From the NCBI GenBank assembly GCA_051866635.1, contig JBJDXJ010000034.1, positions 1 through 37,437 on the forward strand: a DNA stretch of 37,437 bases, read 5' to 3'. How positions within the stretch are numbered: position 1 is the first letter of the stretch; each line of letters starts with the position of its first letter. Below the pieces are notes generated by a model. The model searched no databases, had not been told where the DNA came from, and saw only the letters and a program-made list of their open reading frames with translations. Source of the stretch: Clostridia bacterium. GTDB lineage: Bacteria > Bacillota > Clostridia > UMGS1883. Below, piece by piece: positions 339 through 32,719 of this stretch. Made by a program: the position numbers and the translations under genes.

Positions 339-3300
339 TTACTGAATCTGAGCGGTATCAAATGTGAGTGTGTATGTACCGTCACCGTTGTCTGTAAGCT
401 GTGTTGCAACCTTAACCTTTGAGTTATTGTTGTTAATTCTTACATATTCGCTCCAGTAATTTGTGTTAAGCTTTGCATTGCCTACGGGTGTAAGTGTTAC
501 AGTATATGTTGTACCATCTACTGTTGTTTCGCTTACATTAAAGAATGCATCGCCTGTGTAAGCACCTGTACCTGTTGTACGTGCTGTAAGTGTGCTGTCT
601 GCAAAAGCAAGACGGATACCTGTCTGGTTTACATATGCGTTAAGCACATTTACAAGTACTTCGGGCATTTCACCTGTATGGTCTTCGGGGTCACTTGCTG
701 TACCGTTATCTGTTGTGTAACCGTTTGCAAGGAGACCTGCCGCTACCTTATAGATACTTCTTGTAACAGGAGTACCGTAGTACTTTGTACCGCCAATTGA
801 TACATAAGGTGTAGCTGTGAAGTTACGGTTGTAGTTTGTTACTTCAAGGTTTGTAAGTGCAGAAGTGTATACAGAGTCAGCTACCTGCCACTTTTCTGCA
901 GGAATGTCAACAGTAGTTGTTGTGTTGCCTTCTGCTGTGATTTCAACACCGAAGGTTGCACCTGTTACTGTTGCAAGAGAGTCAGTAGCATTTACTGTTG
1001 TGATAAATCTGAGACCGCTTCCTGTGGAAACCTTGCCGTCTTTATCAACGCCGTCACCAATACGTACCTGAGCACCGTCAACCATTGCAACGCCTACGCT
1101 TGCCGGACGATAGTCAGCATCTGTATCAGGTGCAATTGTTACTACACCGTCTGTAACTGTGTAAACGTTTGTATCGTCTGTTACATAAGCTGCTGTTGTG
1201 TAAACCTTGATTGTTTCGCCTGTGGGAACAACATAGCTGTCTGCTGTGTCTAATAATGTACCCATCTTTGTAACCTTTGTTGCGCCTGTAACTGTAACTG
1301 TGTTAGCAGAAACAACATCGATATAGGATGCGTTACCTTCGTATGTGCCGCCTGCTACGCACGCTTCACGTTCTGCAATGTATGCAGCACCGTAAGCCGC
1401 ACCAAGACGGATTGTAATTGTGGAAAGACCTGCGTTAGCTGCTGCCTTCATCATTTCAGTTACATCCATCTGGATATACTGAGCTGTGTTTGTGGAAGCA
1501 TTGGTGAACATATATTTTGTATAGCCTGTGAAACGAGGAGCAGCTGTATCTGTGTATGTTGCACCGTCTGTAAGCGTTGTCCAGCTGTCGTCATTAATAG
1601 CTGTACCGGAAATACGAAGTGTTGTATTACCGTTAGCAAAGCCGTTGCCATGCCATGTACGAACATAGAAGTTAGCAATTGCAGCTTCGCCGTCAGCAAG
1701 TGAAACTACGGGGAACTGAAGGTAACCGTTACGGTTGCCGCCGAGTGTTGCAGGTGTCTTACCTGCATCTGTTACGGATACTCCGTCATCATCAGTAGCA
1801 GGGTCGTTACGGTCTGCATTACCTGCAGATGCAACGAATATGCTGTTAGAGTTTGTAGCATTTATACCCCAAACGTTGTTGTCGTTATCAACAAGCATAT
1901 CTTCCAAAACTGCATATCTTTCGATAAGTGTAAGTGTTACAGTCTTAACTGCACCTTCGTCTGCATCTGTAACTGTGTAGCTCTGTGCTTCTGCACCTAC
2001 AATATATGCCTTGCCGCCAAGTACAAGGTACTGACGTGCGCTTGCAGCAACATTGTATGCTTCTGTACCGATGATAAATTCTCTTGCGTCGGTATAGAGT
2101 GTTTCGCCGTCTGTTGTTACGTAGTTAACTGTCATGTTAACGCCGGGAGCTACCTTTGTAGCAAGGATAACATCAGAAAGGCTTGATGTAGTGTAGCTGA
2201 TAGCTTCGCCTACTGCTGCTTCTGCAAGAACTGTTGTTCCGTCAGAGGAGAGAAGTACGTCAACTGTTGTGTTGTCTGTGCTTGCCTTGGGGAATGTAAG
2301 TGTTACATCGCCTGTGGGCTGTACAGAATCAGTATTGAACTGCATAAGGTCAAGTTCATAAGCTGTTTTAGCGGTGTATGTTACATCGCTGATTGTGTAT
2401 GCATTTGTTGAACTTGTAGCTCCAACTGTCCACTTTGTGGAGAAGGGAACGTTTGTCTGTGCACCTGTGATTGTAACATTGTTGTCTGTTCTTGTGAAAT
2501 CTGCTGTGTAAGAGTAAGCAGAACCTGTACGGTTGAACTTATTAAGTGCAGTATAGTACGTATCAATGTTACTTACAACATCATTCATCATAAAGATGTC
2601 GCCCTTGCCGTAAGCCATCCAGTTGTAGAAGTTAGTTTCGTTAATCCAGTTGGGGTTGTTGCTCTGTGCAGCACTAACAAGGGTGTTTCCTGTGCCAAAG
2701 AGGCTTGTAGGTGTTGTATAAGCATGAATCTGAGAAATTGTTGCACCGTCTGTAAGAGAGGAATATGTGCTGTCAAGGTAGCTTACGATGCTGCTATAGC
2801 TACTTTCTTCTGTATATGTAGTACCACCATTTAAAGCAGAACGGTTTATAAAGTAGCTGCCCTGACAGTTAACAGCTCTACCCTTAGCAAAGGGAAGGAT
2901 AACTGCTTTTGTACCGCTTGATGTAATTTCGCCGTACTTTTTGTCCCAAGAAGTTGTCATGTACTCGGTAAGGCCTGTGTCCTTAAGGAGCTCAACAAGT
3001 GCAGCGTATACGTATGCGTTGTCGTCACCTTTAGAGGCACCGTACTGTGAGTCGTTATCTGTAATTACCTCGTAATGACCGTCTGCGCTACCACCGTAGA
3101 GGGCGTCACGAGTTGTCTGGAAGTCAAGGATGATAACTTCACCGGGGTTTTCTTTACACCACTGTGCAATTGTGATTGCAACGTCACGGAAGTTTTCAAA
3201 TGCAGGACCATGTACTGTTGCAAATGTGCCGTTCTCCTGACGGGAAAGACGAATATCGAAGTATCTTACACCTGAATTAAGCTGGGTAAGAGCGTCTGCA

Positions 3301-5993
3301 GTCTGTGTACGGGAGTTGCCTATTACTGTGGAAGATGAACTTGATGCACCGCTATCGCCGAAAAGGGCACCACCTTCGTTTGTAAATACGCTTGATTTAT
3401 CCGCAAAAGCGTTATGAGCACCGATATACTTGGACTGAGAGAGCCAGTTATCGTCTGTGAAGTTGTTTCTCATGTACCAAGAACCGATAGAAGCTGTTGT
3501 AGCTTCGTATGTAGCTGTAACTGTGTTACCGCTTACTGTTCTTGACTTCATGATGTGACCGTCATAATGAGGAATGGGTAATGTTTCAGCACCTGTGCAT
3601 TTTACAGTGTATGTGTCAGAAACAGAACCTGTTGCAGTAAATGTAACTGTTACAAACTGGCTTGCCTGGTCGGGTGCGTATACCTTTACGTTGGAAAGTG
3701 CAGCCGAACCTGTGTTACCGCCGCCGTTATTTGTCATAACGATAGTATTGATGTAATCAGCTGCAGCACGGAAAGCATAGTCTGTACATGTAAATACAAC
3801 ACCGGTTGTTACTGTGTCGTAAACTGTGAGAGAGTATTTATCTGTGTCTACATTACCGTGGATAAAGAAACGGTATGTCTTGTTCTTTTCAAACTGAATA
3901 TCTGTCTGAGCAACAGGCTGTGCACGGAAGTAACCGTTGCCGTCAGCGTCCCAACCGAGACCAATCTGACCTGCGCCCCAAAGGTTGCTGTCGGCAGAAT
4001 GATATATCCACAAGTTGTCGTAGTCAGACGCTGTAAGGTCGTATTCAATATAGAAATCGCCTGTTACGTTTACGGGGAAAGTAATTGTACCGTTTGCTGC
4101 AAGGTCGCCGGGTGCGAATGTTTCGGAAAGAACTGTAACAGTTGTGCTGCCGGATACTTCATTACCTTCGATAGTAACTGTACCGTTAATTGTGTGTGTA
4201 CCTACACTAAGACCTGTGTAGCCGGACCATGTAGCACCGGAAACAGTTGTTGTTGCGCCGGCACCTGTAACTGCTGTTACGGTTGTGGGCATAATGGGGT
4301 CGTTACCTTCAATTACCGTGATAGCATCTGCTGTAAAGCTAACAAAAGCGTCGGTTGTATATGTAAGTGTAACAGTATCTGTGTTACCTACAACTGTGTA
4401 GCTTGTGGGGTTTGTGCTATCTAAAGAATAGGGGTTGCCGTTGTATGTAATTGTTGAGGGAACAAGGGTCGTATTTGTAAGGTCAATAACATCGCCTACA
4501 ACGCCTGTTACTGTAGTTGATGTTGCAATTTCAGTAGTTCCGTCAGAAGAGTCAACAAACTTGATTGTTGTGTTGGCAATCTTAGAAGAGTCAATCTCTA
4601 CAGGGTAAACTTCAACATCTGCAAGACCTACAGAACCCCAGCCTTCGAAGAATACGAGGTATTCTTTTGTTGCTGTGAAAACGCCTGTCTTCTGTACCCA
4701 AGCGCTGCTTGTGCCGAAGCCGCCATTTCCAATAATGTCAAGGCTTTCTGTAGTTGCGCTGTCGGATTGACCTAAACCGTGCCACTGGTCGCCTGCCTTA
4801 ACCCACAAGCTGTAGTAGTATGTTGTGCCGGGTGTTATATCCCAAGCCTGCTTGATAGAGTTTGTGGAAGATGCGCCGCCGTTACCGGAAGATACAGCTG
4901 CTCTTGTTGCACTGTCGGGCTTATCGCTTGTTGAAATTGAGTAATTTGTGGGAGGTGTTGTGTTAGCACGGCTGTACCAACCATTCATACCGTGTTCAAA
5001 GTCACCATTGGGAACAATGTTACCGCCTGTTGTAACATAGGGTGTGCCGTCAACTGTGATTGCACTGCCTGTAGTATAGTTACCCCAGTTAGTAACAGGA
5101 CTCATTTCGATTGTACCTGTTGCAGAAAGTTCCTGCTCCGGAGCATAGTAGAGTACATTTGTACCGCTTGCTCTGTAGTAGTATTCAGCCAAAGCAAGAC
5201 CTGTTGCTGTTGTACTATCGTACTTGCCTGTAACAGTTTTAACTGTTTCGCCGCCTGCTGTGTATGTAGCTGTTACTTCAACCTGTGTTTCTGTTGCAGG
5301 GTATACAGCACCGATTGTAAGGTTACCGAAACCGATATGGTTCCAAGCTGTGGACCAACGACCGTTAGAAGATGTGATACCGCCGAAGCCTGTGATTGTA
5401 CCTGCTTTGTCAGCTACTGTGGAAACAACGCTGCCGCCTACATAGTATTCAACTGTATGAGTGCTGCCGTCTTCATTGTTGTATGCAACGATAGCACAGT
5501 CTGTACCTTCTGCGGGATAACCCATGTAGTACTCGCCTGTAACAGATGTGTAGTTCTTATCGAGCTTTAAGAACGCAATTTCTGTGCCGTTCTTATCTGT
5601 GAAGGAGAAGTCGAAGTACAAGTCAGAAGGGTTCTGTCTCTTCAATACCCATTCGATAATGAGCTTTTCTTCTGTACCGTCACCATAGCCGGGAGAAGTG
5701 ATTGTTGTAACGTTTGCAGTACCGTTTACATAGTACTGAATAACGTTACCTACGCCGGAATATGTTTTTACGTTAACATAACCGCTTGTAATGCTGGATG
5801 ACCAGCCGGAAAATGCGTCAGCGATAGCTGTGTCGTTGAAGGATCCGTCGGGACAAGCCCAAAGAACATCACCGCCAAGAGTGTCGATAACGCCTGTTGT
5901 TCCTTCAGCGCCTACTGTCAAGCTAAACGCCGGAACAATAGAAAGGACCATTGCAAGGGAAATTACAATGGCCACAAAACGTTTAAGTTTCAT
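339..5993 (-). CDS. Large secreted modular protein (1884 aa): signal peptide, CBM4/9-like, MucBP/Ig-like and lectin-like modules, PI-PLC-X-type catalytic domain, DNRLRE-like module, conserved C-terminal domain
   Basis: ATG at 5993 with GGAGGA RBS 7 nt upstream (ORF track starts 5 codons earlier); signal peptide MKLKRFVAIVISLAMVLSIV; NIVPNGDFEHG (CBM4/9-like); GAHNAF...TQ...QLNSGVRYFDIRL...TVHG...EVIILDFQ (PI-PLC motifs, ~3480-2540). Confidence 0.85.
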   Translation of the reverse strand: MKLKRFVAIVISLAMVLSIVPAFSLTVGAEGTTGVIDTLGGDVLWACPDGSFNDTAIADAFSGWSSSITSGYVNVKTYSGVGNVIQYYVNGTANVTTITSPGYGDGTEEKLIIEWVLKRQNPSDLYFDFSFTDKNGTEIAFLKLDKNYTSVTGEYYMGYPAEGTDCAIVAYNNEDGSTHTVEYYVGGSVVSTVADKAGTITGFGGITSSNGRWSTAWNHIGFGNLTIGAVYPATETQVEVTATYTAGGETVKTVTGKYDSTTATGLALAEYYYRASGTNVLYYAPEQELSATGTIEMSPVTNWGNYTTGSAITVDGTPYVTTGGNIVPNGDFEHGMNGWYSRANTTPPTNYSISTSDKPDSATRAAVSSGNGGASSTNSIKQAWDITPGTTYYYSLWVKAGDQWHGLGQSDSATTESLDIIGNGGFGTSSAWVQKTGVFTATKEYLVFFEGWGSVGLADVEVYPVEIDSSKIANTTIKFVDSSDGTTEIATSTTVTGVVGDVIDLTNTTLVPSTITYNGNPYSLDSTNPTSYTVVGNTDTVTLTYTTDAFVSFTADAITVIEGNDPIMPTTVTAVTGAGATTTVSGATWSGYTGLSVGTHTINGTVTIEGNEVSGSTTVTVLSETFAPGDLAANGTITFPVNVTGDFYIEYDLTASDYDNLWIYHSADSNLWGAGQIGLGWDADGNGYFRAQPVAQTDIQFEKNKTYRFFIHGNVDTDKYSLTVYDTVTTGVVFTCTDYAFRAAADYINTIVMTNNGGGNTGSAALSNVKVYAPDQASQFVTVTFTATGSVSDTYTVKCTGAETLPIPHYDGHIMKSRTVSGNTVTATYEATTASIGSWYMRNNFTDDNWLSQSKYIGAHNAFADKSSVFTNEGGALFGDSGASSSSSTVIGNSRTQTADALTQLNSGVRYFDIRLSRQENGTFATVHGPAFENFRDVAITIAQWCKENPGEVIILDFQTTRDALYGGSADGHYEVITDNDSQYGASKGDDNAYVYAALVELLKDTGLTEYMTTSWDKKYGEITSSGTKAVILPFAKGRAVNCQGSYFINRSALNGGTTYTEESSYSSIVSYLDSTYSSLTDGATISQIHAYTTPTSLFGTGNTLVSAAQSNNPNWINETNFYNWMAYGKGDIFMMNDVVSNIDTYYTALNKFNRTGSAYSYTADFTRTDNNVTITGAQTNVPFSTKWTVGATSSTNAYTISDVTYTAKTAYELDLMQFNTDSVQPTGDVTLTFPKASTDNTTVDVLLSSDGTTVLAEAAVGEAISYTTSSLSDVILATKVAPGVNMTVNYVTTDGETLYTDAREFIIGTEAYNVAASARQYLVLGGKAYIVGAEAQSYTVTDADEGAVKTVTLTLIERYAVLEDMLVDNDNNVWGINATNSNSIFVASAGNADRNDPATDDDGVSVTDAGKTPATLGGNRNGYLQFPVVSLADGEAAIANFYVRTWHGNGFANGNTTLRISGTAINDDSWTTLTDGATYTDTAAPRFTGYTKYMFTNASTNTAQYIQMDVTEMMKAAANAGLSTITIRLGAAYGAAYIAEREACVAGGTYEGNASYIDVVSANTVTVTGATKVTKMGTLLDTADSYVVPTGETIKVYTTAAYVTDDTNVYTVTDGVVTIAPDTDADYRPASVGVAMVDGAQVRIGDGVDKDGKVSTGSGLRFITTVNATDSLATVTGATFGVEITAEGNTTTTVDIPAEKWQVADSVYTSALTNLEVTNYNRNFTATPYVSIGGTKYYGTPVTRSIYKVAAGLLANGYTTDNGTASDPEDHTGEMPEVLVNVLNAYVNQTGIRLAFADSTLTARTTGTGAYTGDAFFNVSETTVDGTTYTVTLTPVGNAKLNTNYWSEYVRINNNNSKVKVATQLTDNGDGTYTLTFDTAQIQ

Positions 5994-6041
5994 TTTAATT
6001 TCCTCCAATAAATTTATTTCCTATTATATATGAAGAAACGC

Positions 6042-6606: not shown

Positions 6607-6668
6607 ACAGCACACCTTAAAGTGTGCTGTCCTGGCGGAGAAAGAGTTCTGCCTGTCATATACACAAT
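6607..6668. repeat. Direct repeat copy 1: terminator-like hairpin + tRNA-Ser-3'-end-like att core
   Basis: ACAGCACAC-n6-GTGTGCTGT then TGGCGGAGAAAGAG (reverse complement CTCTTTCTCCGCCA); repeated at 8335-8397 and 8553-8588. The hairpin is also placed to terminate the ATPase gene. Confidence 0.8.
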
Positions 6669-8116
6669 CATTCAATACCCCTGTACCCGTTCTTTTCTGC
6701 ATGACCAAGCAAATACAAAAATGCATATGCAGGAATACGAAGCATTTTAAAACCATTTTTAGCATTATGCACGCCGTAATCATTGGGAGCTTTTGTAACA
6801 ACAATTGATGCTGCTGATTCTTCACACAATTCACATATTGCGTCAGTATCTGCAATCGGTGCTCCATCACGGTATTTTACTTCTATCAGAATATTTTTTA
6901 ATTTTGGATATTCTACCACAATGTCAATTTCTTTATTCTTTTTTCCACCTCTATAATAGCCTACAGAAGTTGCCTTTTGATAGTAAAAGGCTGCAATATG
7001 CTTATAAACGGCAGTTTCTGCAATTTTGCCCATTTCCACAGGATCTGTGAGCAAATTATCGTCCATTAAAACGGCATTTCTTATAGCGGCATCTGCGATA
7101 TATATTTTTGGTCTTGCCTTTAACACTTTTTTGTCTGCCATATTTATCGGCCAGCTTTGATAAATGAGATTTGCGCTTTCAAGATATGATATATAATTTT
7201 CAACTGTCGGACGGCTTACTCCATTAAGTTCTTTCGCTATGGCATCCAATGACACTATTTCAGAGGAAACATTGCACAAATAGAGAAATATCCTTTCTAA
7301 TTCCGTTGAATTGCGTATATTGTACAAGGACGGCAAATCTCTTTTTAAAACCTTGTCAACTACATCTTCTCTCATTACCTGTTCGGCAAAAATATCATCA
7401 TTAGCAAGTGCTAATTCAGGGAATCCACCCACCCTTAAATATCGGTTAAAGTGTTTTTGTATATCAGAGAGCTTTATCATAATCTCCGAAAATTCGCGAT
7501 ATTCCATTTTTACAAGATTTGTTGGTCTTAAATCCTTTGGTAACACCGGTCGCTCAATGTTTAAAAGTTCACAATATTCATAGAATGACATTGTAGGAAC
7601 CTGTATAACAGACCATCTTCCTGCACCGCTTTCCCTGTCGCCTTTAATAAGGGCCGGACTTGCAGAGCCTGTTGCAACAACCTTAGTTTCCGGCTGCATA
7701 TCGTAGATTATTTTTAACCATTTATCCCATTCGGATGCGTATTGTATTTCATCAAAAAAATAATATACATCTTTATCTGCACAGATGTTTTCATGATAAC
7801 ACTCTAAAATATCATTAAATGCACTCAATTTTAACATGGGATGATCCATTGATATAAAAACAATCTTTTGAGGACTTACGCCTCTTTTTAAAAGAGATTC
7901 AATCATCTGGTACTGTATTGTAGTTTTGCCAACTCTTCTTGTGCCTGTAAGCACAACAATTCTTCTTATTTGCTCATTGCTAATTTTTTTCATGGCTTCA
8001 TAAAAAGCAAAGCGTTTATACGTTTTGGAAAAAGCTGTACTCATGGTACCGTTTTTCCACCACGGGTTATAAGCTGAAAGTACCTTCAGTATATTTTCCT
8101 TTGTTGTAATTGCCAC
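6668..8116 (-). CDS. AAA_14 / DUF4143 family ATP-binding protein
   Basis: Walker A GTRRVGKT, Walker B FFDEIQ, TGS, GGFPE, C-terminal EIDIV...IEVK restriction-endonuclease-like motif; GTG at 8116 with GAGGTG RBS (track start 8125). Confidence 0.9.
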   Translation of the reverse strand: MAITTKENILKVLSAYNPWWKNGTMSTAFSKTYKRFAFYEAMKKISNEQIRRIVVLTGTRRVGKTTIQYQMIESLLKRGVSPQKIVFISMDHPMLKLSAFNDILECYHENICADKDVYYFFDEIQYASEWDKWLKIIYDMQPETKVVATGSASPALIKGDRESGAGRWSVIQVPTMSFYEYCELLNIERPVLPKDLRPTNLVKMEYREFSEIMIKLSDIQKHFNRYLRVGGFPELALANDDIFAEQVMREDVVDKVLKRDLPSLYNIRNSTELERIFLYLCNVSSEIVSLDAIAKELNGVSRPTVENYISYLESANLIYQSWPINMADKKVLKARPKIYIADAAIRNAVLMDDNLLTDPVEMGKIAETAVYKHIAAFYYQKATSVGYYRGGKKNKEIDIVVEYPKLKNILIEVKYRDGAPIADTDAICELCEESAASIVVTKAPNDYGVHNAKNGFKMLRIPAYAFLYLLGHAEKNGYRGIE

Positions 8117-8137
8117 AAAAACCACCTCTTTATTTAT

Positions 8138-8166
8138 ATAATATCCAAAACTTTCATTTTTGTCAA
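8138..8166 (-). promoter_or_regulatory. sigmaA promoter of the ATPase gene
   Basis: Minus strand TTGACA-17 nt-TATTAT. Confidence 0.75.
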
Positions 8167-8259
8167 CAATAATTTAAAGTATATTTATAATTATTTGCAA
8201 TTTTTTTGTAAATATACTTCAATTATTGTTTTTTAATGGTTGGCGCATTATATAAATTA

Positions 8260-8397
8260 TTCATTTTTGAGCATTACCGCAACTTAAAAAGACAAATCTT
8301 CGTTTTCCTTGGTTTTACTTCCTTTACGCAAAAAGCAGCACACCCTAAAGTGTGCTGTCAAGGGCGGAGAAAGAGTTCTGCCGGTTATATACACAAT
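8260..8397. repeat. Direct repeat copy 2 (with ~75-bp left extension shared with copy 3)
   Basis: 8335-8397 matches 6607-6668; 8260-8372 matches 8470-8588 (GAGCATTACCnCAACTTAAAAAGACAA...CTTCGTTTTCCTT...). Confidence 0.85.
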
Positions 8398-8437
8398 TTA
8401 TTTTTCTACAAAACAACCTGATGAACTTATTCTGTTT

Positions 8438-8461
8438 TATCGTTTAATTGTGAAACGTCCC
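8438..8461. other. Isolated res-subsite-like sequence
   Basis: TATCGTTTAATTGTGAAACGTCCC is 22/24 identical to 16670-16693 directly upstream of the resolvase gene. Confidence 0.55.
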
Positions 8462-8469
8462 CAAAAACT

Positions 8470-8588
8470 TTCATTTTTTTTGAGCATTACCTCAACTTAA
8501 AAAGACAAGCCTTCGTTTTCCTTAGTTTTACTTCGTTTACACCAAGATACAAACAGCACACCCGTAAGTGTGCTGTCCTGGCGGAGAA
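8470..8588. repeat. Direct repeat copy 3
   Basis: Same left extension, hairpin ACAGCACAC/GTGTGCTGT (8553-8576) and TGGCGGAGAA (8579-8588), diverging afterwards. Confidence 0.85.
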
Positions 8589-8760
8589 GTTAAGACTTCT
8601 CCCAATATCCTAATCACCCAATCTTTGCAAAATGCACGATTTAGTTTGATTGTAATTCCTCATACGGCAATATTAGAAATAAACCTACTTGAAGTATCTT
8701 ATTTTTATTTATAATGCAACAACTTTGTATTAAAGCATTTGTATATAATGTTCAGTTATA

Positions 8761-9978
8761 TCAATTACCATATCTAAGTTCGGTAATTTTATCCCTTAAA
8801 TCGTTGTTGTTTTTTATATCAGAAAATTCGGGTTTTATTAATAAATTAATTACTATCTGTTTTGCTAGCCAAATAGCCTCACATCGTTCGGTTTCAATAT
8901 CTTTTGAAAAAACACCATGTGCTACTTTTGATCTAATTGAATATAATTTTCTAAACAGTGTTTCGATTTCTTTTCGTGTTTTTAAATCTGAACCAACAAT
9001 AAAGGCCGCATATTCTGCAATTTGTGCTGTTATACTTTTAGTAATAAAATCGCTTTGATCTTGCAACAAGCACTCTATTGCAAATATGCTTTGCAAAAAT
9101 GACAAGCAGAAATCTATTTCGTTAATTGATCTACCTATCCATTCTACTGATTTCAGTATTCTTTTTTGAATTTCATTTTTACTTTCTAATTGAACAATTT
9201 GCCATAGTTTGTCATTTCCGCTTTCGCCTGGAAAAAACCAAGTATCATCAAGCTGAATACCTCTTGGAGGATTTTGAACATTTGCATATGAAAACTTCAC
9301 ACCTTCATTAGGTTTTATGCACATATATCCACCCAATAAATTCGTATTAAAATCAAACATCCCCAAACCACAATTTTTATCCATATTTCCTGACATAAAA
9401 CGCAAAACATTATCCAATTGATGTAATTTTTCATCAGCAGTTTCTTTCGCAAAATCAACATCTTTTGCAACAACAGCGATTTCAACATAGCAAATAAAAT
9501 GTGTTTTGCTCTGATGGTCCAGAAAAAACTTCACATGTTGCTCATCAGTATATTTCTTAAGATATTCTTTGACATAATAGCTTGATATAAATTTATATCC
9601 ATAAAAATCTATTATTTTGTTATTTTTAAGATATCCACCATATAGAGGTCTTATATAAAAAAATTTTTGTAATTCGATATTAGAAAACTCTTCTAATATT
9701 TTTTCAATAATGTTATTTTCTTTTTTTATCAGTAATTGGTGTAGCTTTTTTTCAAAAAACTTATATGATATTTCCTTTTCCGAAACGATTATGTGGTCAT
9801 ATAATTTCGTCATGCATTCTTTATATTTAATAGCATTCTCTTGTGTCATAATATAAATCTCGCCATTTTTATAAGTCACAATTCTTACTGCGTCTTTGAT
9901 TTTTGCATCAATTGTGTCTTTTACTATAATTGATGCAAGAAGTTCTGATAATGTTTGTTCAATTACTTTTGAATTCAA
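8761..9978 (-). CDS. HEPN domain protein (ApeA-like HEPN), candidate RNase/defence effector
   Basis: C-terminal AIECLL...LYSIRSKVAHG with RxxxxH motif; strongly AT-rich; likely TTG start at 9978 behind GGGAG (ATG at 9996 is the alternative). Confidence 0.75.
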   Translation of the reverse strand: MNSKVIEQTLSELLASIIVKDTIDAKIKDAVRIVTYKNGEIYIMTQENAIKYKECMTKLYDHIIVSEKEISYKFFEKKLHQLLIKKENNIIEKILEEFSNIELQKFFYIRPLYGGYLKNNKIIDFYGYKFISSYYVKEYLKKYTDEQHVKFFLDHQSKTHFICYVEIAVVAKDVDFAKETADEKLHQLDNVLRFMSGNMDKNCGLGMFDFNTNLLGGYMCIKPNEGVKFSYANVQNPPRGIQLDDTWFFPGESGNDKLWQIVQLESKNEIQKRILKSVEWIGRSINEIDFCLSFLQSIFAIECLLQDQSDFITKSITAQIAEYAAFIVGSDLKTRKEIETLFRKLYSIRSKVAHGVFSKDIETERCEAIWLAKQIVINLLIKPEFSDIKNNNDLRDKITELRYGN

Positions 9979-10011
9979 AATATTTCTCCCTTTCATTATT
10001 TTAATATACTA

Positions 10012-10908
10012 TCACCCAATATACGGCACTTTAAAATACTCTAAATACCTTTTAAATTTATCCTGTGCAGACAGGCAAGTATCAGTCAAATACCCTTTTT
10101 CATTATTCCATTCGGACAGACCTCGATAGTAGAACATTTTAAGGTTGTCATCTATGATAAATGGAACAATATTGTTTTTTAAGCACTCCTTAAACATTAT
10201 CAGTCTGCCGACTCTTCCATTGCCGTCTTGGAATGGATGTATTGTTTCAAACCGGTAATGAAAATCTATTATTTCTTCCAATGAATGTTCGTTCTTTTTA
10301 TTATAAGATTTCAGTAATTCCTTAATTTCCCACGCAACATCTGTAGGGCTTACCGTTTCTTTTCCCCCAACCTCATTAGGAAGCTTTTTATATTCCCCTA
10401 CATTGAACCAATCTTTTCTTGAATCACTCGTGCCTGATTTTAAAGTAAAATGCAGTTCTTTTATGAATTTTTCTGTAAGCTTATACGTGGCATTATCAAT
10501 TATCATATCAATGCACTTAAAATGATTTGCTGTTTCTATAATGTCGTCCACATTCAAGCTGTCCTTTTCTGTGCCGATAGTATTTGTTTCAAAAATATAT
10601 CTCGTTTGGTCATGTGTCAGTTTACTACCCTCGATATGATTTGAATTATAAGTAAGCTCTATTTGTATTTTGTGATAAATTCCGCCTTTTAAGGAAGATT
10701 TCTTCTCTTCACGTAATCTTTCAAGAAGGTTTTTAGGTTCATTGCTTCTTTTATTTATTCGCTGAGGCTTCTTGGCATTTTCAGGGATGTTCCACGTTTT
10801 ACCCGTTAAAAATGCTCCGGGGATTTTATTTTCAGCACAGTATTTTCTAACACCACGCTCAGACATATTCCATTTTTTCGCAACTTGAGAAACAGATAAA
10901 TAATTCAT
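10012..10908 (-). CDS. Fic family protein with N-terminal HTH
   Basis: Canonical HPFQDGNGRVGR motif, YNSNHIEG motif, N-terminal HTH (SVSQVAKKWNMSERGVRKYC); ATG at 10908 with AGGAGG RBS (298 aa). Confidence 0.93.
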   Translation of the reverse strand: MNYLSVSQVAKKWNMSERGVRKYCAENKIPGAFLTGKTWNIPENAKKPQRINKRSNEPKNLLERLREEKKSSLKGGIYHKIQIELTYNSNHIEGSKLTHDQTRYIFETNTIGTEKDSLNVDDIIETANHFKCIDMIIDNATYKLTEKFIKELHFTLKSGTSDSRKDWFNVGEYKKLPNEVGGKETVSPTDVAWEIKELLKSYNKKNEHSLEEIIDFHYRFETIHPFQDGNGRVGRLIMFKECLKNNIVPFIIDDNLKMFYYRGLSEWNNEKGYLTDTCLSAQDKFKRYLEYFKVPYIG

Positions 10909-10932
10909 ACAGTACCTCCTAATATTGTATAT

Positions 10933-11003
10933 ATTATACCACATTATCGGAACAAAATCAATAATTTCAACAGCATTATTTTGCATTTGTGCCGACATCG
11001 GCA
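10933..11003 (-). promoter_or_regulatory. sigmaA promoter and candidate operator for fic-HEPN
   Basis: TTGATT-17 nt-TATAAT with TGTG extension (10961-10933); palindrome TGCCGA-ca-TCGGCA at 10990-11003 and a related half site in the spacer. Confidence 0.65.
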
Positions 11004-11038
11004 TTTTCTTATTTATAATAAAAAAACAAAACACAATA

Positions 11039-11063
11039 GCCCTGTACCGCTTCGGTACAGGGC
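11039..11063 (-). terminator. Terminator after the large serine recombinase
   Basis: GCCCTGTACCG-ctt-CGGTACAGGGC 6 nt past the stop, followed by T-rich sequence on the minus strand. Confidence 0.75.
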
Positions 11064-11068
11064 CTCTC

Positions 11069-12595
11069 TTATCTCAATATATCCTTCTTAATCCTAAAAT
11101 CATTGTGATTTGTCGGCGATATATTAAATTCTATACTAATTTTATCTCTATAAATAATTACCTTATTAATATACTGGGCAATTATCGCCTTTTTATTCTT
11201 GACAGTGCCGTTTCTCAGCATATCCTTCGCTTTGTAAAAAGCCTGCCTTAGTTGCACTTCATCTATATTCATATCAGAAATCTTACTTTCAATCTCGCTC
11301 AATGAAGCTTGTAATTGCTCTTTACGTGTTTCTAATTCCTGCAACTTTTCGCTAAGAGCTGCCGAACCCGTCTTCATCATTACGTTAACAATATTATTGA
11401 TGCCTTTGTTGATATCCGCTAATTCCCTCTCAGTCGCCTCTCTTGCTCTTGCCAAATCAGTGTTTTGACTCATTGCATATGTATTATATTGTGCCATTAC
11501 AGCCGAAAACATACTGTCACAAAACAGAGAGTCCGCCAGCTTCTCTAAAACAATGTTTTCGATTGCGTCTCTTTGAATTTCCGGATTTTTACACTTCACC
11601 TCATTGTTTCGGCGAGTACATCTATAAGATATGTACATCGTATGATTACTGTAAGCCTTACGAGAATTTCCGCAGTAGGCACAGCCACATTCCCCACACA
11701 CAATTTTACCTGACAATAAATATTCTTGTTTTGCCTTAAAGGTCGCCGTTTTTAATCGTCTGGCTGCCATTTTCTGTTGCACTTTTTGAAAATCTTCTTC
11801 CGATATTATCTGCGGCACCCCTCCGGGAATCCTTATAATATCTTCATCGCTCTTGTTTTTATGTCTGTTGAACTTACCCTCGGCATTTTTTGAGGCTGAC
11901 TTGTTGTAGACAAAAACGCCCGTGTACTTCTCGTTACGTAAAATTTCGTACAAAGAATTCCTTTTAAAAGGCGTTCCTCGTTTAGTTCTGTACCCTCTAC
12001 GGTTCAGTTCATTAATAATAGCCTCATAGCCCTCTCCGTCAATCACCATCTTGAATATCATTTTCACTGATTCTGCTTCGTGTTCATTAATAACCAGCTT
12101 CATCGTCGTTTTATCTACATCATATCCCAACGGAGGCGTGCCCCCGGTATGTCTGCAGGTCAGAGCATTTTCGCGTAATCCTTTCATTACTTCTCGACGC
12201 AAATTTTTAGAATAGTACTCATTATACCCTTCAATAACGCTTTGTAAGATAATCGACTCCGGGCTATCATCGAAATTTTCCGTGACCGAAATCAGCCTCA
12301 CGCCATATTTTTCGAGCTCTTTTCTGTAAATTGCACTGTCTGCCCGGTTTCTCGCAAAACGGTCTAATTTGTGCACAAGGATCACATCGAACACACCCAA
12401 CCTTGCATCGTCTATCATGCGTTGAAACTCAACACGCTTATCTGTGGTAGCACTCATAGCCCTGTCAACGTAGGTTCTGATTAAAGAGTAATTGTTCTTT
12501 TCAACGAACTGACGAATTGCACGTTCCTGGGCATCAATAGATTCCTCTCTCTGCATGTCGCTGGAAAACCGGCAATAGCCTACTGCTCTTAGCAC
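11069..12595 (-). CDS. Large serine recombinase (integrase)
   Basis: GYCRFSS catalytic motif, KLDRFARN, recombinase domain (PPLGY...ILRNEKYTG), zinc ribbon (CGECG...YRC...C), coiled coil. Confidence 0.95.
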   Translation of the reverse strand: MLRAVGYCRFSSDMQREESIDAQERAIRQFVEKNNYSLIRTYVDRAMSATTDKRVEFQRMIDDARLGVFDVILVHKLDRFARNRADSAIYRKELEKYGVRLISVTENFDDSPESIILQSVIEGYNEYYSKNLRREVMKGLRENALTCRHTGGTPPLGYDVDKTTMKLVINEHEAESVKMIFKMVIDGEGYEAIINELNRRGYRTKRGTPFKRNSLYEILRNEKYTGVFVYNKSASKNAEGKFNRHKNKSDEDIIRIPGGVPQIISEEDFQKVQQKMAARRLKTATFKAKQEYLLSGKIVCGECGCAYCGNSRKAYSNHTMYISYRCTRRNNEVKCKNPEIQRDAIENIVLEKLADSLFCDSMFSAVMAQYNTYAMSQNTDLARAREATERELADINKGINNIVNVMMKTGSAALSEKLQELETRKEQLQASLSEIESKISDMNIDEVQLRQAFYKAKDMLRNGTVKNKKAIIAQYINKVIIYRDKISIEFNISPTNHNDFRIKKDILR

Positions 12596-12630
12596 CTCAC
12601 CACCCCCTTCCTTCTAAAATTTTAGTTTAT

Positions 12631-12762
12631 TTACGCGGCTACATCAGAAATAACCGCTTCTTCCGTAGCAACAGCCTCGTATACCGCTTCCAGCAACGTG
12701 GTAATACTTGCCTCGTTACATTCCCTAAATACCATTTCAACATTTATTTCTCTTGAACTCAT
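12631..12762 (-). CDS. Small hypothetical protein (43 aa) upstream of the recombinase
   Basis: Read manually: MSSREINVEMVFRECNEASITTLLEAVYEAVATEEAVISDVAA*, GGTAGGTG RBS-like; fills the helicase-recombinase gap co-directionally. Confidence 0.55.
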   Translation of the reverse strand: MSSREINVEMVFRECNEASITTLLEAVYEAVATEEAVISDVAA

Positions 12763-12795
12763 AAAACACACCTACCAAACAATATTAGCTCAGGG

Positions 12796-12826
12796 CTACG
12801 ATGGTGGAAAATCCCCACCATCGTAG
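12796..12826. other. 12-bp perfect hairpin after the helicase gene
   Basis: CTACGATGGTGG-n7-CCACCATCGTAG; no clear U-tract, so attenuator/processing site/origin element rather than a classical terminator. Confidence 0.5.
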
Positions 12827-12837
12827 TCAGAAGCATA

Positions 12838-14361
12838 TTATTTCAACTCAATATCAAGATACTTTCTTGATATCTTATCTTTAGCACGAGTAAAGCCACG
12901 AACGGCAAAATCTTTGCCAAATTTGGTTTCGCTCATAGGAGTCAAGAAGTTATCCGCACAATACAGAAGATACGCTTCATACAACATCCTTGCTCGAACT
13001 TCGGCACCTTCAGCCTTCCTGATGCATGCATCTATGAAGCCGCCCAGAGTATCCTGAGACTTACGATACCTTTTAGTAGCTTTATTTACTGCCTCGCAAG
13101 TACCAAGTCCCTCAGAATAATACTTAACGGCACCTTTAACCAACCACGCAAGTACTGCTTTCCTGGACTGTTTGAGTTCATTCAATAGATTTTTATTCAA
13201 CTTGTCCTTTGTAACAGTGTGTTCAAAGGGAACAACCCGAATTCTTCTCCAAATTCCGTGGTCGGTTCCGCTTATTTGAGGAAGGTAGTTCGTATCAATT
13301 ATACATTTGAACTCGGGTTCGTAAGTAAATGCCTGCGAGTAAAGTTGGCGCGCAGCCAAGGTTTCTCCGCTCGACATAATCTTGATTTTCCCTTCGTTCA
13401 ATGCATCCGTACAATTAAGCTCACTGCAACATACCAGCCTCTTGTGAGGGAGCTGCGCAATTTCTGATGTAGCTGCCCCTGCCTTTTCGGAGCTGGTCAG
13501 CACTTTGGCAGGTATCACCGCCGCATAGTCATGCATTATATATTGCACAAGAGATATTAATGTACTCTTGCCGTTAGCACCGTTTCCTAAGAAAAAGTGT
13601 ACCACTTGCTCCTTCGTCTCCCCTGTTATACAGTAGCCGAACAAGCGCTGAATATACCTTATTAACTCTTCTTCCTCAAAGGTGTCTTTGAGAAAGGCTT
13701 TAAATTGCTGACACTTAGCAGATGCATCGTACATAATCGGAATCATTTTAGTTAAATAATTCCTGCGATTGTGCTTTCGCAAAGTTCCATCCCTTAAATC
13801 GATTGTTCCGTTAAGAACATTCAATAGATTTGGATGTTTGTCAAACTTATCGTTACTAAACGCGAGCGTCGCCTTCGCACCTTCAACTAACGCCTTGACC
13901 TGATGATGGTTACAACATCGATATGCATGGAAGAGAAGGTCCTCATAGTTGTTCCTGCCGTATTCCTTCTGCAAGCGTTTGATTGTATAATCTCTACGCG
14001 CTCGCATAGCCGTTTGCGCCCAAAGGAGTATTTTTTTCTCTGTGTCTTCCTTCCACAACCTTCCTGTCCAATAGTAATAGGTGTTCTTATCGCTATTATA
14101 AATAACGTAATCCCCAAACATATCCATAAAGCAATCGATGTTTCCGGCATCATCAGTTGTGTAGTCAAGAACCTTGTCTTTTATCTTTTTCTTTCGTTCT
14201 TTAAGTTCTTGCAGAAAATCCGGTGCAAGTTCATTCAAGTACGGCTTGGTATTACTACCGTGAATGACGTTCTTGCCTTCGTTTTCCGTGAACTCCCTTA
14301 TCTGGGTTTCGCCAAAAAGCTCCTCAAATGTAATTAAATTATTATTTTTATCTTTAGACAT
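12838..14361 (-). CDS. Phage/plasmid P4-family (D5-like) SF3 helicase; no recognisable primase domain
   Basis: D5_N motifs (YYWTGRLWKED, LLNVLNGTIDL), Walker A GNGANGKS, SE Walker B, TNYLP, DHGIWRR; AGGAGG RBS. Confidence 0.9.
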   Translation of the reverse strand: MSKDKNNNLITFEELFGETQIREFTENEGKNVIHGSNTKPYLNELAPDFLQELKERKKKIKDKVLDYTTDDAGNIDCFMDMFGDYVIYNSDKNTYYYWTGRLWKEDTEKKILLWAQTAMRARRDYTIKRLQKEYGRNNYEDLLFHAYRCCNHHQVKALVEGAKATLAFSNDKFDKHPNLLNVLNGTIDLRDGTLRKHNRRNYLTKMIPIMYDASAKCQQFKAFLKDTFEEEELIRYIQRLFGYCITGETKEQVVHFFLGNGANGKSTLISLVQYIMHDYAAVIPAKVLTSSEKAGAATSEIAQLPHKRLVCCSELNCTDALNEGKIKIMSSGETLAARQLYSQAFTYEPEFKCIIDTNYLPQISGTDHGIWRRIRVVPFEHTVTKDKLNKNLLNELKQSRKAVLAWLVKGAVKYYSEGLGTCEAVNKATKRYRKSQDTLGGFIDACIRKAEGAEVRARMLYEAYLLYCADNFLTPMSETKFGKDFAVRGFTRAKDKISRKYLDIELK

Positions 14362-14596
14362 AAATTCGTCCTCCTATAAATTTTTTTATGATTTCAAACA
14401 TTGTCAAAATCTAATTGTGAAGTGGGTTACGTTCTGATATAATAATTATAAGAACATAACAGGCGCCATACACAACACCATTAGCTTGTCAACATCGTGG
14501 ACCACACACATAATATAATTTAAAAGTGAATAACTGTCATTCACTTTTGGAGGGAACTTATAAACGCAAAGTCCAAATTTTTTAGGAGGTCACGCT

Positions 14597-16030: not shown

Positions 16031-16099
16031 ATTTTCTGCTAAAAAAAATTGGGTTTTTTCTCTCATAATTTTGCTACAACCCGTCAACCTGACACCTTC

Positions 16100-16645
16100 T
16101 CATCCAAATCTGCGATAAAATGTGCTTTTACTTATCCCAAGCCTCCGTATGGCATCCGCAGCAGAAATCTGTCCATCTTTCCATTTCTTTACAACAGTAT
16201 CACTATCGGCAGGAAGCTTTTTGGGCTTCCTGCCTTTATATTTTCCCATGGATTTTGAAATGGCAATTCCCTCTGCCTGTCTGCTAAGAATATAACTTCG
16301 TTCAAGTTCGCTGACAGCACCGAATATCGTCAGCATAAATTTACCGGTCGCAGTAGTGGTATCAATAGCCTCCTTCTGACTTACAAACTCCACCTCTTTT
16401 TGTGTCAAAACATCAATAAGTTCTAAGAGGTCTCTTGTGTTTCTTGCAAATCGACTTATCTCACTTACAATTACCGTATCGCCCTTTCTTACATATGAGA
16501 GTAGTTTTTTCAACTGAGGTCTATCCGTATTCTTTCCCGATAATTTATCAATGAACACCTCTTCTACACCAAGCTCCTCCATCAACACCTCTTGCCTAAT
16601 CGTATTTTGCGTTGCTGAACTGCATCTAATATACCCTATCCTCAT
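16100..16645 (-). CDS. Resolvase/invertase-type small serine recombinase
   Basis: GYIRCSS, DKLSGKNTDRPQL, SRFARN, C-terminal HTH (LGISKSTFYR). Confidence 0.95.
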   Translation of the reverse strand: MRIGYIRCSSATQNTIRQEVLMEELGVEEVFIDKLSGKNTDRPQLKKLLSYVRKGDTVIVSEISRFARNTRDLLELIDVLTQKEVEFVSQKEAIDTTTATGKFMLTIFGAVSELERSYILSRQAEGIAISKSMGKYKGRKPKKLPADSDTVVKKWKDGQISAADAIRRLGISKSTFYRRFG

Positions 16646-16669
16646 TTTCCCTCTCCTTTCCCATTAGGG

Positions 16670-17897: not shown

Positions 17898-17899
17898 AA

Positions 17900-29496: not shown

Positions 29497-32400
29497 TCAG
29501 ACTGTAGGAGTTGTGAATGTAAATGTAAGAACTCCGTTTTCATCAATTGTAACATCAGAGATGTTATTTTTGACAACAGAATTGTTGTTGTTAATTCTTA
29601 CATATTCTGTCCACCAGTTGGGTTTGATTTCAACTTTTGTATTAAAGTTTTCATCGGGAGTAACAGTAATCAGATATGTTCCGTCATCGTTCTTTACAGA
29701 TTCTACATTAAAGAATATATCGCCTGTATAAGCGCCTGCTCCTGTCTCTCTTGCAGAAACTGTGCCGTCAGATTTAAGAGTAAGGCGAATACCAACCTGA
29801 TTTACATATGCCTGCAATACGTTTATAAGTGCCTTGTTTTGCATTGAATAATCATCATTTGCATCTTCGCCGTTGTCAGAAGCTGTCACACCGTTTTTAA
29901 GCAAGCCTGCCGCAACCTTATAAATGCTTCTTGTAACACTATCATTTCCTGTAAATTCCTGTCCGTCAACCTTTACATAAGGTGTTGTAGTAAAGTTACG
30001 GTTGTAGTTATTTTCTTTAAGGTCAGTAAGTGCCACTGTGAAAATGCCGTCTTCTTCGTTCTGGAATTTTTCAGCCTTTATATAAACAGCTACATCGCTT
30101 TCCTGGGCTGTAATTTTAATACCGTATTCTGCACCTTCTACATTTACAAGGGAGTCATTACGGTCTACCTTGCCGATAAATCTTAAGCCGTTGCCGCTTA
30201 ATACCTTACCCGTTTCGTCAACACCGCCGCCGTAACGAACCTGTGCACCGGAAACTGTGCTTACACCTAAAATTGCAGTAGTATAGGCACCTTCAACGGG
30301 ACGAACGTCACTTTCTACCCTATAGACCTTTGTGTAATCGGTAAATGCTGCAATATTTTCATTTTCGGAGTAAAATCTTACGGTATCGTTTTCTGTCATT
30401 ACAAATTCTTTGCAATTTTTTAATAAGCTACCATTCTTCGTTATGCTCGAAGCACCTGACACCTGAACTGTCCATGCACCACACACCTCAAGATACGATG
30501 CTTTGCCCTCGTATGACTTTCCGTACTCTGCATTTTCACGATTTACAATGTATGCACCTGCCGTAGGAGCATAGAGTGCAAAGGTAATTTTATCCGTCTG
30601 CGCATTTTCAATTGCCTCAGTTACATCAATAGATATCCACTTATCACATGGATTTTTTCCGTCATCAGATGTACTTACAGCAATAACAGAATCCTTTGAC
30701 CAAAGTAATCCCTCAAGGCTTGCAACATCGCCAACATTGTACATTGCGAGTTCATTTACCTGTATATCAACAACATTTGCAGCTATACGCATGGAATTGT
30801 TTATGCCCAGATTCTGATTTGTATTTGCAACATAAACATTCAGTTTAACTGCATCGCCTTTTTTATAATTTTCGGGGATATTGAAAGTGAGAAGTGGTAT
30901 CCTGGCGCTTCCAAGTACTCCGCCACTTCCAACAGTGGCAGAATTATCCTCATCCTGATTGGGTGCATTACTTAGCCCCGACGCTCCAACAAAGAGCATA
31001 TCTCCGCTGTTGTCTTTGTTTCCGGGGTCACTTGCCGTTACCGCATAGGTATCATCTAAAACAGCATTTTCATGTATAATTTCCAGCTTTACCTCGTATG
31101 TTTTTTCGTCATCATCTTCTGTGACAATATGACTTTGCTCTTCGCAGGAAGCAATATATGCCTTATCGCCTATGCGTACATAAAAGGCCTCTGACGCGGG
31201 AAAATCGTAAAGTGTTTCGCCGACAATATAGCTCTCTGTTGTACTTGCAATAATCTTTTCTCCATCAGTATAGTTTACTGTAACATTAACTGTATCGGTA
31301 CTGCAATAAACTCTTATATTATCTGCGTGGAACTGACCTTCATATTCCCCTCCGTTTGTAAGTATTGACAAGCAATCAATAACATCCAAATTTGTTCTGA
31401 AGCCATAATTTGTAACAGTTGTTTTGACTCCCTCCGGATCAGTGAGTGTCAGAGAATATTTATCCGTGGATGCATTCGCTTTTATCATTATTCTGTATAC
31501 AGTATCCGTTGAGAGGGTCGTGTGAACTACATCGGGGTTTGTGTTTCTTCCACCGGTGCCGTTACCGTCTACACATCGAAATCCACCCGATGAATTGACA
31601 CCAAAAAGGATTTGGTCAGGACCAAAGTAGTTTTTAACACTGCTATCCTTAAGCATAATCCATTCATCACCAAATTCCTGCCATACCACATCCATCTCAA
31701 TTATAAATTCATCCTCAATCGAAACAGGGAATTTTTTCATGTATGTGTCAGCATCTTCCTGATTTTTTAACGAATACATGCCTTCGAGTGCAAATGTTTC
31801 TGGATAAACCGTAACAGACGCAGTAGCAGGTGCACCTGAAGCGTCACCTTTTACGGTAACGATTTTAACCTCTTCTGTATCGTTGGAATAATCAGCATCT
31901 TCCCATACAACTTCTGATATGATTTCTTCACCATCTGATTTTTTAACTCTTACAGTCTTGGGCAAAACAGGCTTATTTCCGTCAATAACCGTTGCTGTAA
32001 CCTCATCAAGCACCGTGTCTGTGTCGACACTTATAAGCTGTATGTATGGCTCATAATCGCCTTCAACGGAAAGGTTAATTCCGTTTACAGGCACCTGAAA
32101 GCGAAGTACAACCTGGCTTTTACCTGCACTTACAGCATTGTAAACAGCCTTTGTTACATCAACCTTCGCCCATCCGGATGTTGAACCGATACTTCCGCTT
32201 GCTGTGAATTTTTCATCGGACCACATTGCCGCAGAATAAGAATAATCATTATTTACTGCTGCAAAGTCTGATGCATTCATACCTCCTACGTTATATGTAA
32301 GCGAAGGGTTTTCTGTCTCATACACCGCAAAACGCATCCAGTTACCGCCAAGGTTTCCGTTTACTGAATTTACATATACGTTCAATGTCGCCTTTATTAT

Positions 32401-32697
32401 TTTGTTCAAGTCTGCACCTTCAACTGAAAATGCCATAACACCTATTCTTGTGCTGCCAAGCCTTGTGGATGCCGACGCAGTATCTCCCTCAACATAAGGT
32501 GCGCATGTGCTTGAGCCTGATGTGTCGGGGGCATCCACTGTTGCAACCAAAATACCTGTCCCCAATGCGGTTCCGCTGTGTCCGTAGCCTACAAGCTCAA
32601 GAGTTGTTTCGCTTACTTCTGCAAACGCAACAATCCCTCCGGGAACAACCCCCAAAAGCATGCTTACTGCCAAAATTAAGGATATTACCTTCTTCAT
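29497..32697 (-). CDS. Secreted, apparently non-catalytic surface protein: two DNRLRE-like modules, Ig-like and lectin-like modules, conserved C-terminal domain
   Basis: Signal peptide MKKVISLILAVSMLLG (alternative ATG at 32706); internal repeat (LNVYV..VN.NLG...MR.A); middle and C-terminal regions align by eye with the 339..5993 protein. Confidence 0.82.
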   Translation of the reverse strand: MKKVISLILAVSMLLGVVPGGIVAFAEVSETTLELVGYGHSGTALGTGILVATVDAPDTSGSSTCAPYVEGDTASASTRLGSTRIGVMAFSVEGADLNKIIKATLNVYVNSVNGNLGGNWMRFAVYETENPSLTYNVGGMNASDFAAVNNDYSYSAAMWSDEKFTASGSIGSTSGWAKVDVTKAVYNAVSAGKSQVVLRFQVPVNGINLSVEGDYEPYIQLISVDTDTVLDEVTATVIDGNKPVLPKTVRVKKSDGEEIISEVVWEDADYSNDTEEVKIVTVKGDASGAPATASVTVYPETFALEGMYSLKNQEDADTYMKKFPVSIEDEFIIEMDVVWQEFGDEWIMLKDSSVKNYFGPDQILFGVNSSGGFRCVDGNGTGGRNTNPDVVHTTLSTDTVYRIMIKANASTDKYSLTLTDPEGVKTTVTNYGFRTNLDVIDCLSILTNGGEYEGQFHADNIRVYCSTDTVNVTVNYTDGEKIIASTTESYIVGETLYDFPASEAFYVRIGDKAYIASCEEQSHIVTEDDDEKTYEVKLEIIHENAVLDDTYAVTASDPGNKDNSGDMLFVGASGLSNAPNQDEDNSATVGSGGVLGSARIPLLTFNIPENYKKGDAVKLNVYVANTNQNLGINNSMRIAANVVDIQVNELAMYNVGDVASLEGLLWSKDSVIAVSTSDDGKNPCDKWISIDVTEAIENAQTDKITFALYAPTAGAYIVNRENAEYGKSYEGKASYLEVCGAWTVQVSGASSITKNGSLLKNCKEFVMTENDTVRFYSENENIAAFTDYTKVYRVESDVRPVEGAYTTAILGVSTVSGAQVRYGGGVDETGKVLSGNGLRFIGKVDRNDSLVNVEGAEYGIKITAQESDVAVYIKAEKFQNEEDGIFTVALTDLKENNYNRNFTTTPYVKVDGQEFTGNDSVTRSIYKVAAGLLKNGVTASDNGEDANDDYSMQNKALINVLQAYVNQVGIRLTLKSDGTVSARETGAGAYTGDIFFNVESVKNDDGTYLITVTPDENFNTKVEIKPNWWTEYVRINNNNSVVKNNISDVTIDENGVLTFTFTTPTV

Positions 32698-32719
32698 AAA
32701 TTCCATTCCTTCCTTTACT

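Follow-up and report, generated by a model that had tools for sequence, protein, structure and literature searches.

A new unannotated module of about 250 residues on large secreted proteins of uncultured hindgut Clostridia

Two carrier genes and their common C-terminal module

The DNA analysed here (hereafter, the window) is a stretch of 37,437 nt from contig JBJDXJ010000034.1 of a Clostridia bacterium, and its minus strand carries five large genes for secreted proteins, two of which, P0001 and P0002, end with the same module of ca. 250 residues (Table 1). The two copies of this module have 122 identities over 231 positions (53%, E 2e-71; 51.5% over 262 columns by local BLASTP), versus 31.8% over 359 aa for the best segment of the upstream, or cargo, regions and 31% over 237 columns for a second block. 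This agrees with a preliminary description of the window, which had reported the C-termini as closer to each other than the modules preceding them, and every motif string that it quoted is present in the alignment. The same description presented the two proteins as otherwise different, which is overstated: their whole alignment extends over 621 columns with 40% identity and P0001 and P0002 are paralogues over ca. 600 residues beyond the module. Mobility of the module between unrelated proteins is therefore deduced from the other carriers described below and not from this pair.

Neither P0001 nor P0002 displays a match to the SLH or dockerin profiles, an LPxTG motif in the last 60 aa or a hydrophobic tail (maximum 19-aa hydropathy <=0.34); profile scans, motif check and hydropathy all concur with the earlier reading that both lack an LPxTG, SLH, dockerin or transmembrane tail. 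The ATG codon of MKLKRF at 5993 is more likely to be the start of P0001 than the TTG from which its length is counted. In this protein, residues 888-964 (window 3117-3347) resemble the PI-PLC X domain (E 1.5e-4, 21.8 bits, below the 23.1-bit cut-off) and the bulk of the 1889 aa has no family assignment. The ca. 340 aa located upstream of each module (window 1104-2195 and 30277-31300) are CBM96/DNRLRE-like in P0002.

Table 1. Positions of the carrier genes, the module copies and their parts in the window, and of partial matches in genomes of the same genus
Feature	Position	Strand	Description	Evidence
Carrier gene 1 (P0001)	339..6008	-	1889 aa from TTG start; signal peptide, large unannotated N-terminal regions, weak PI-PLC-X-like stretch, CBM96-like pre-module region, module	Stop codon 339-341
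Carrier gene 2 (P0002)	29497..32706	-	1069 aa; signal peptide, Big_4, CBM96/DNRLRE-like region, module	Stop codon 29497-29499
Module copy 1 (P0006)	342..1103	-	Last 254 aa of P0001	Envelope of the hidden Markov model ends at stop codon; AlphaFold2 pLDDT 83.8, pTM 0.82
Module copy 2 (P0007)	29500..30276	-	Last 259 aa of P0002	Sequence alignment and profile match
N-lobe, copy 1	756..1103	-	Module residues 1-116; predicted beta-sandwich, possibly FN3/Ig-like; GAQVR, GLRF and NYNRxFTAxPY motifs	Predicted secondary structure
Helical hairpin, copy 1	621..755	-	Residues 117-161; helices TRSIYKVAAGLL and VLNAYVNQ round an acidic loop	AlphaFold2 model
C-lobe, copy 1	342..620	-	Residues 162-254; small beta-sandwich (164-250) with invariant YTGDxFFxV and YVRINNNNS	Alignment A1, AlphaFold2 model
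N-lobe-only matches in congeners	G006:C27:182361-182717; G009:C8:34387-34740; G003:C17:17-364; G007:C26:959-1327

Modelled with AlphaFold2 on an alignment of 13 sequences, the module is predicted as a confident single unit, as judged by the predicted local distance difference test (pLDDT) and the predicted template modelling score (pTM) given in Table 1. The helices of its hairpin span residues 117-127 and 148-161, and the acidic loop in between (130-143) is disordered (pLDDT <50) and of variable length in alignment A1, which comprises the 13 paralogues found in the genome of the window (see below). The C-lobe folded alone reaches a pLDDT of 62 and its best structural match (Z 5.2) is meaningless; this lobe thus seems to require the remainder of the module, which does not in itself make its fold a novel one.

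Sequence libraries returned nothing usable for the module. In Pfam at E<=10 the best match was Filamin (E 0.023, 16 bits versus a cut-off of 26.9), in NCBIfam at E<=1 the best scores were <=13.5 bits, PDB sequences searched at E<=10 gave no usable match, the fn3 and Big families had no sequence match at a useful threshold and the ESM Atlas contained only unnamed Bacillota clusters. Foldseek detected no PDB structure at E<=1e-3; its top match, a carbohydrate-binding module (CBM) of family CBM56 (5t7a_B), is weak (E 1.3e-3, TM 0.24 on the query and 0.58 on the target, 13% identity) and is followed by FN3 domains of cytokine receptors. A wide search with VIA gave a best Z of 8.3 (root-mean-square deviation 2.9, 98 aligned residues), which lies in the range common for unrelated models and corresponds to a generic FN3/Ig fold covering residues 1-119 only. 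A literature search, made mostly at the level of listings, yielded no description of the module. The proposal of a candidate new module is borne out by the sequence libraries, Foldseek, VIA and the ESM Atlas, in which no characterised family of CBMs or anchors was matched, and the module represents a new domain family without annotation, probably with a function of a known kind.

Copies, cargo and distribution of the module

The 2.33 Mb genome to which the window belongs contains 16 matches to the module, which correspond to 13 full copies and three fragments at contig edges, two of them C-terminal (contig starts) and one N-terminal (contig end). No more than 10 aa separate 11 of the full copies from the stop codon, and the two others are internal, one being followed by a GH88 domain (417-aa tail) and the other by a 217-aa unannotated domain. 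A signal-peptide-like N-terminus of the Sec type, with a basic n-region and a hydrophobic h-region, occurs in all 12 carriers having a complete N-terminus, so that none of these appears to be cytoplasmic; the heuristic used is too permissive for a census of the secretome, being positive in 183 of 379 open reading frames (ORFs) of >=500 aa, and that census was dropped. Comparison of the paralogues two by two showed that the module is common to all 78 pairs, at 33-71% identity, and that 46 pairs have nothing else in common (E<=1e-3). Many paralogues match P0002 only from residue ca. 797-812 onward, which independently supports the N-terminal boundary of the module and agrees with that drawn in the preliminary description. 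Alignment A1 has 38 invariant columns, including 6 Arg, 7 Asn, 2 Gln and 3 Tyr; in module numbering, the invariant polar residues include R14, R32, N90, N92, R93, R115, R164, R222 and N224-N226. The module is more conserved than the cargo and displays the same conserved motifs whatever the enzyme class to which it is attached. These data indicate that the module is a real, shuffled and discrete unit.

Its dissemination is nonetheless partly a matter of plain paralogy, since the block of ca. 250-340 aa just upstream of the module is common to 7 of the 13 carriers and points to duplication of a larger C-terminal block. This observation, together with the frequent occurrence of Ig-like spacers in such proteins, would fit a module devoid of any binding role, serving as a structural stalk or spacer or as a helper of folding or secretion and spread by lineage-specific expansion of paralogues. 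Such a role is unlikely: more than half of the pairs have the module alone in common, it is better conserved than the cargo and many of its polar residues are invariant, which is unusual for a spacer, and a module located at the very end of most carriers cannot space anything there.

A wider search with the A1 profile against 1.84 billion representative sequences gave 396 proteins at E<=1e-3, 113 of them at E<=1e-30 with the full module. Among the proteins fetched, the full module is present in 166, in every case exactly once and never in tandem; as these are cluster representatives, some of them fragments, they cannot be counted as independent events. The terminal position seen in the window prevails in this set: the tail after the module measures <=15 aa in 128 proteins and 16-45 aa in 15 others, in which it is mostly acidic and not hydrophobic. 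Placement that is internal or close to the N-terminus is limited to 23 of the 166, mostly from one lineage of GH88 fusions (15 proteins); of the others, 5 have a tail of ca. 217 aa and in 3 the module occupies residues 127-384. The N-lobe and helices alone were found at the C-terminus of 22 further proteins from Oscillospiraceae metagenome-assembled genomes (MAGs), with LRR_5, Big_2 or Flg_new as cargo.

When species genomes of GTDB were searched, the full module was found in all nine congeneric genomes, each with 5-14 matches at E<=1e-10, and in the sole genome of each of two further genera of the family. None was detected in 39 genomes of the largest genus of this family nor in 23 genomes from the remaining families of its order, and one sister genus displays weak matches to the N-lobe only in 5 of 11 genomes. 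Named records having the module are Clostridia or Oscillospiraceae MAGs from the hindgut of goat, roe deer and water buffalo. The module is thus confined to one uncultured Clostridia/Oscillospiraceae genus of the ruminant hindgut and two neighbouring genera.

The cargo is diverse. In the genome of the window it includes an alginate-lyase-like protein with ricin and MucBP domains, DUF6055, GH88, a protein with 16 matches to BspA-type LRR_5 and a carrier of 2385 aa (L023, G000:C11:57693-64847) in which peptidase M23, CHB_HEX_C_1, Flg_new and a cohesin-dockerin-cohesin series precede the C-terminal module. Among relatives, heparinase II/III-like, BNR_4, GH127, PL11 rhamnogalacturonan lyase, GH97, GH141 and M26-like peptidase domains were found.

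The main rival to a role in cell attachment, and a serious one even if rather unlikely, is suggested by this cargo. The module would be a new CBM family binding a plant or host polysaccharide of the niche, perhaps an anionic one (pectin, rhamnogalacturonan or glycosaminoglycan), and would concentrate the enzymes on their food; it could also bind both substrate and cell, as reported for CBM37. Enzymes for glycans containing uronic acids (PL11, GH88, heparinase II/III-like and alginate-lyase-like) dominate the cargo, the predicted beta-sandwich architecture is typical of CBMs, the top Foldseek match, though weak, is a CBM56, internal and N-terminal placements exist and the six invariant Arg lie within an acidic domain. 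Against this explanation, the module is also borne by BspA-type LRR proteins, by M23 and M26-like peptidases and by a cohesin scaffoldin, it is never in tandem and never occurs more than once per protein, and its conserved motifs are identical across enzyme classes. Furthermore, the module is never found alongside SLH, whereas CBMs commonly are.

Surface anchoring and the candidate role of the module

The genome has 38 ORFs with SLH, in which 76 repeats lie at one or the other end of the protein, and none of these ORFs is among the 13 module carriers: no match to SLH (PF00395) was found in P0001, P0002, the module alone (E<=10) or the 11 other carriers, and among relatives it is absent from the precomputed Pfam column of 93 proteins and from 25 more that were scanned. 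No sortase (PF04203) was found in this genome, which is 96.6% complete, and all 12 carriers checked for a sortase signal lack LP.T[GASN] in the last 60 aa (maximum 19-aa hydropathy <=1.01). Four dockerins and five cohesins are present, one of the dockerins being located upstream of the module in the C11 carrier (L023); dockerin type I (PF00404) has no match inside the module. The small cohesin-dockerin system also includes P0227 (C17, 702 aa), with three cohesins and a dockerin, and the adjoining 1709-aa Glug/Big_2 protein with a terminal dockerin; SLH occurs on none of its members.

The high copy number, presence once per protein, independence from the cargo, secretion of the carriers, mostly terminal position, conservation exceeding that of the cargo and exclusion of SLH together point to an address module. 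Beyond the observed existence, boundaries, mobility, secretion context and lineage restriction of the module and its absence of known relatives, a mechanism can tentatively be put forward. The module is best described as an autonomous, non-catalytic, extracellular domain, predicted to fold as one unit, which shuffling has attached a single time per protein, and in most cases at the very C-terminus, to numerous unrelated proteins secreted by the Sec route. Its invariant polar surface, putatively formed by the conserved Arg, Asn, Gln and Tyr among the 38 positions, may bind one ligand regardless of the cargo, the likeliest candidate being an envelope polymer or protein of the producing cell itself, and secreted enzymes would thereby be kept non-covalently on the cell, a role like that of CBM37 in Ruminococcus albus and of SLH elsewhere. 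Based on copy distribution and conservation, the most likely of the explanations considered, though with some reservation, is that the module is such a non-covalent, cargo-independent tether to a common ligand of the envelope. It is also conceivable, though somewhat doubtful, that the module forms a previously unrecognised non-covalent surface display system beside SLH, binding a lineage-specific polymer or receptor of the envelope and anchoring the small cohesin-dockerin assembly. In cellulosomes, anchoring scaffoldins carry a cell-wall module, usually SLH, and the cohesin-bearing carrier therefore fits retention at the envelope.

The preliminary description had proposed a terminal module that attaches cargo to the cell surface or to a scaffold, as an alternative to cohesin-dockerin or SLH. 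Attachment gains support from the copy number, the cargo independence, the lack of co-occurrence with SLH and the cohesin-bearing carrier, but a sorting signal that is processed and strictly confined to the C-terminus is excluded by the copies located internally or near the N-terminus. The idea of an alternative did not hold: since the organism has ample SLH and a small cohesin-dockerin set, the module adds to both and replaces neither.

Several points weigh against an envelope tether. The structural matches are generic FN3/Ig folds, so that the fold points to no ligand, and the internal or N-terminal copies (23 of 166, for instance those with GH88 after the module) are as typical of CBMs as of anchors. 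Most of the cargo degrades glycans, much of it anionic ones, which makes a ligand shared as a substrate plausible, and SLH anchoring already exists in this genome and leaves no gap to fill. No recurrent partner gene flanks the 79 module loci, at which ORF clustering gave antisense shadow ORFs and orthologous groups of at most seven loci. An argument based on charge was also considered and rejected, as the isoelectric points of the module (4.2-4.9), of the cargo (4.1-4.5) and of the SLH regions of the genome (4.2-5.7) are all acidic and thus uninformative.

Protein-protein docking, with a surface receptor, an S-layer protein or a cohesin-like protein as the partner, or self-assembly, in which the module would oligomerise and so cluster its carriers, appears very unlikely. 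The distribution resembles that of dockerins (terminal, one per protein, many carriers), the genome has only the few dockerins and cohesins mentioned above and FN3/Ig folds are frequent mediators of protein contacts; yet no conserved partner gene adjoins the module genes, and the cohesins are matched in number by ordinary dockerins.

An envelope tether can further be compared with known systems, the size of CBM37 being often quoted as ca. 100 aa. The closest analogue of the module is CBM37 of R. albus, of which it is nevertheless not a family member. In PMC4081043, CBM37 is described as restricted to R. albus, with 51-102 copies per genome on many enzyme classes and rarely with dockerins, as often in tandem and as attaching enzymes to the cell wall or surface and to polysaccharides. 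Both are lineage-restricted, high-copy, usually C-terminal and non-catalytic modules on varied secreted enzymes of an Oscillospiraceae gut bacterium. They differ in that the presumed CBM37 of R. albus 7 has 97 aa and is FN3-like, whereas the module has ca. 250 aa in two lobes and is never in tandem. Comparison by hhalign of A1 with the 97-aa C-terminus of the GH11-CBM22-GH10 protein of R. albus 7 plasmid pRUMAL02 gave a probability of 0.18% (E 0.33), for a single sequence whose CBM37 identity was deduced from the architecture table in PMC4081043. With regard to the R. albus plasmids, GH11 is present in pRUMAL02 and absent from pRUMAL01, and the module has no tblastn match in any PLSDB plasmid, those of R. 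albus 7 included.

Like SLH, the module may be a non-covalent terminal address on large secreted proteins of Clostridia, located at either end with one set per protein, and the two are mutually exclusive within this genome. The SLH fold is a helical trimer, whereas the module is predicted to form beta-sandwiches and its carriers have no match to the SLH profile. The pair formed by type I dockerin and cohesin similarly relies on terminal modules giving many enzymes a common destination, as the module would, but the dockerin consists of ca. 60 aa of Ca-binding helices and the module of ca. 250 aa of beta structure without a match to the dockerin profile; one carrier even has a genuine dockerin and cohesins besides the module. 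As for the FN3/Ig-like 'X' modules of clostridial enzymes and scaffoldins, the predicted N-lobe may have a generic FN3/Ig-like sandwich of this kind, to which the module adds an integrated helical hairpin and a second lobe (pTM 0.82 for the whole, with a C-lobe that folds poorly alone).

Uncultured hindgut Clostridia supply a large share of the fibre- and pectin-degrading genes in ruminant metagenomes, and retention of their very large enzymes near the cell has mostly been deduced from SLH and dockerin annotations. The family described here is invisible to Pfam and NCBIfam and marks ca. 15 secreted proteins per genome in one genus, so that naming it would improve the annotation of several hundred large 'hypothetical' proteins. 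If it is an anchor or a broad-specificity CBM, it would provide a new tag for displaying proteins on surfaces or for targeting enzymes, and would join CBM37 as a second case in nature of a lineage evolving a retention module of its own; as a display system, it would add a further solution for enzyme retention in Clostridia to SLH, sortase, anchored cellulosomes and CBM37. The module is useful for annotation and relevant to specialists of carbohydrate-active enzymes (CAZymes) and cellulosomes, and concepts would remain unchanged unless its ligand is unusual.

Tails of relatives and other genes of the window

Several relatives (P0090-P0095, P0159 and P0160) extend past the module with a strongly acidic tail of 28-29 aa (...ERPSDSNDN...DGFDGE...), and many of the relatives having the N-lobe only terminate in ...GDNDSAWPWN. 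In the congeners, proteins of ca. 450-500 aa match the N-lobe only (profile positions 3-131/136; Table 1), with no such match in the genome of the window. In a sister genus, homologues of the carriers' cargo occur without the module (L100, L102, L103 and L104; genomes G016, G044 and G048) and end with a different region of ca. 300 aa followed by an acidic tail (...DFIPEL in three of the four and ...SFVEEV in the other), which may be another lineage-specific terminal tag. Homology between this tail and the module is not established, as profile comparison gave a probability of 10% (E 0.003) over 41 columns and the likeness resides only in the NxNRxY...SIY motif.

The other three large secreted proteins of the window are glycan-active and do not carry the module. 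They are P0003 (21030-25721), which has DUF5703_N and a weak GH95_C-like match, P0004 (25833-29090), which has GH43, and P0005 (33219-36389), which combines a Cu_amine_oxidN1-like N-terminus, ricin lectin domains, GH43 and F5/8 type C. A small 'KAFxW' domain noticed by eye in P0003, P0227 and two proteins of a sister genus was not confirmed, as jackhmmer with the last 100 aa of P0003 found only P0003 itself.

Between two blocks of CAZyme genes, the region 6668-20854 resembles an integrated mobile element, with three serine recombinase/resolvase genes, a D5-type primase-helicase, a Fic/DOC protein with a helix-turn-helix, an AAA_14/DUF4143 ATPase and an amidoligase/GATase pair; its GC content is 0.30-0.36 versus 0.40-0.45 in the flanks. 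Finally, an AraC-type regulator is encoded at 36570-37388.

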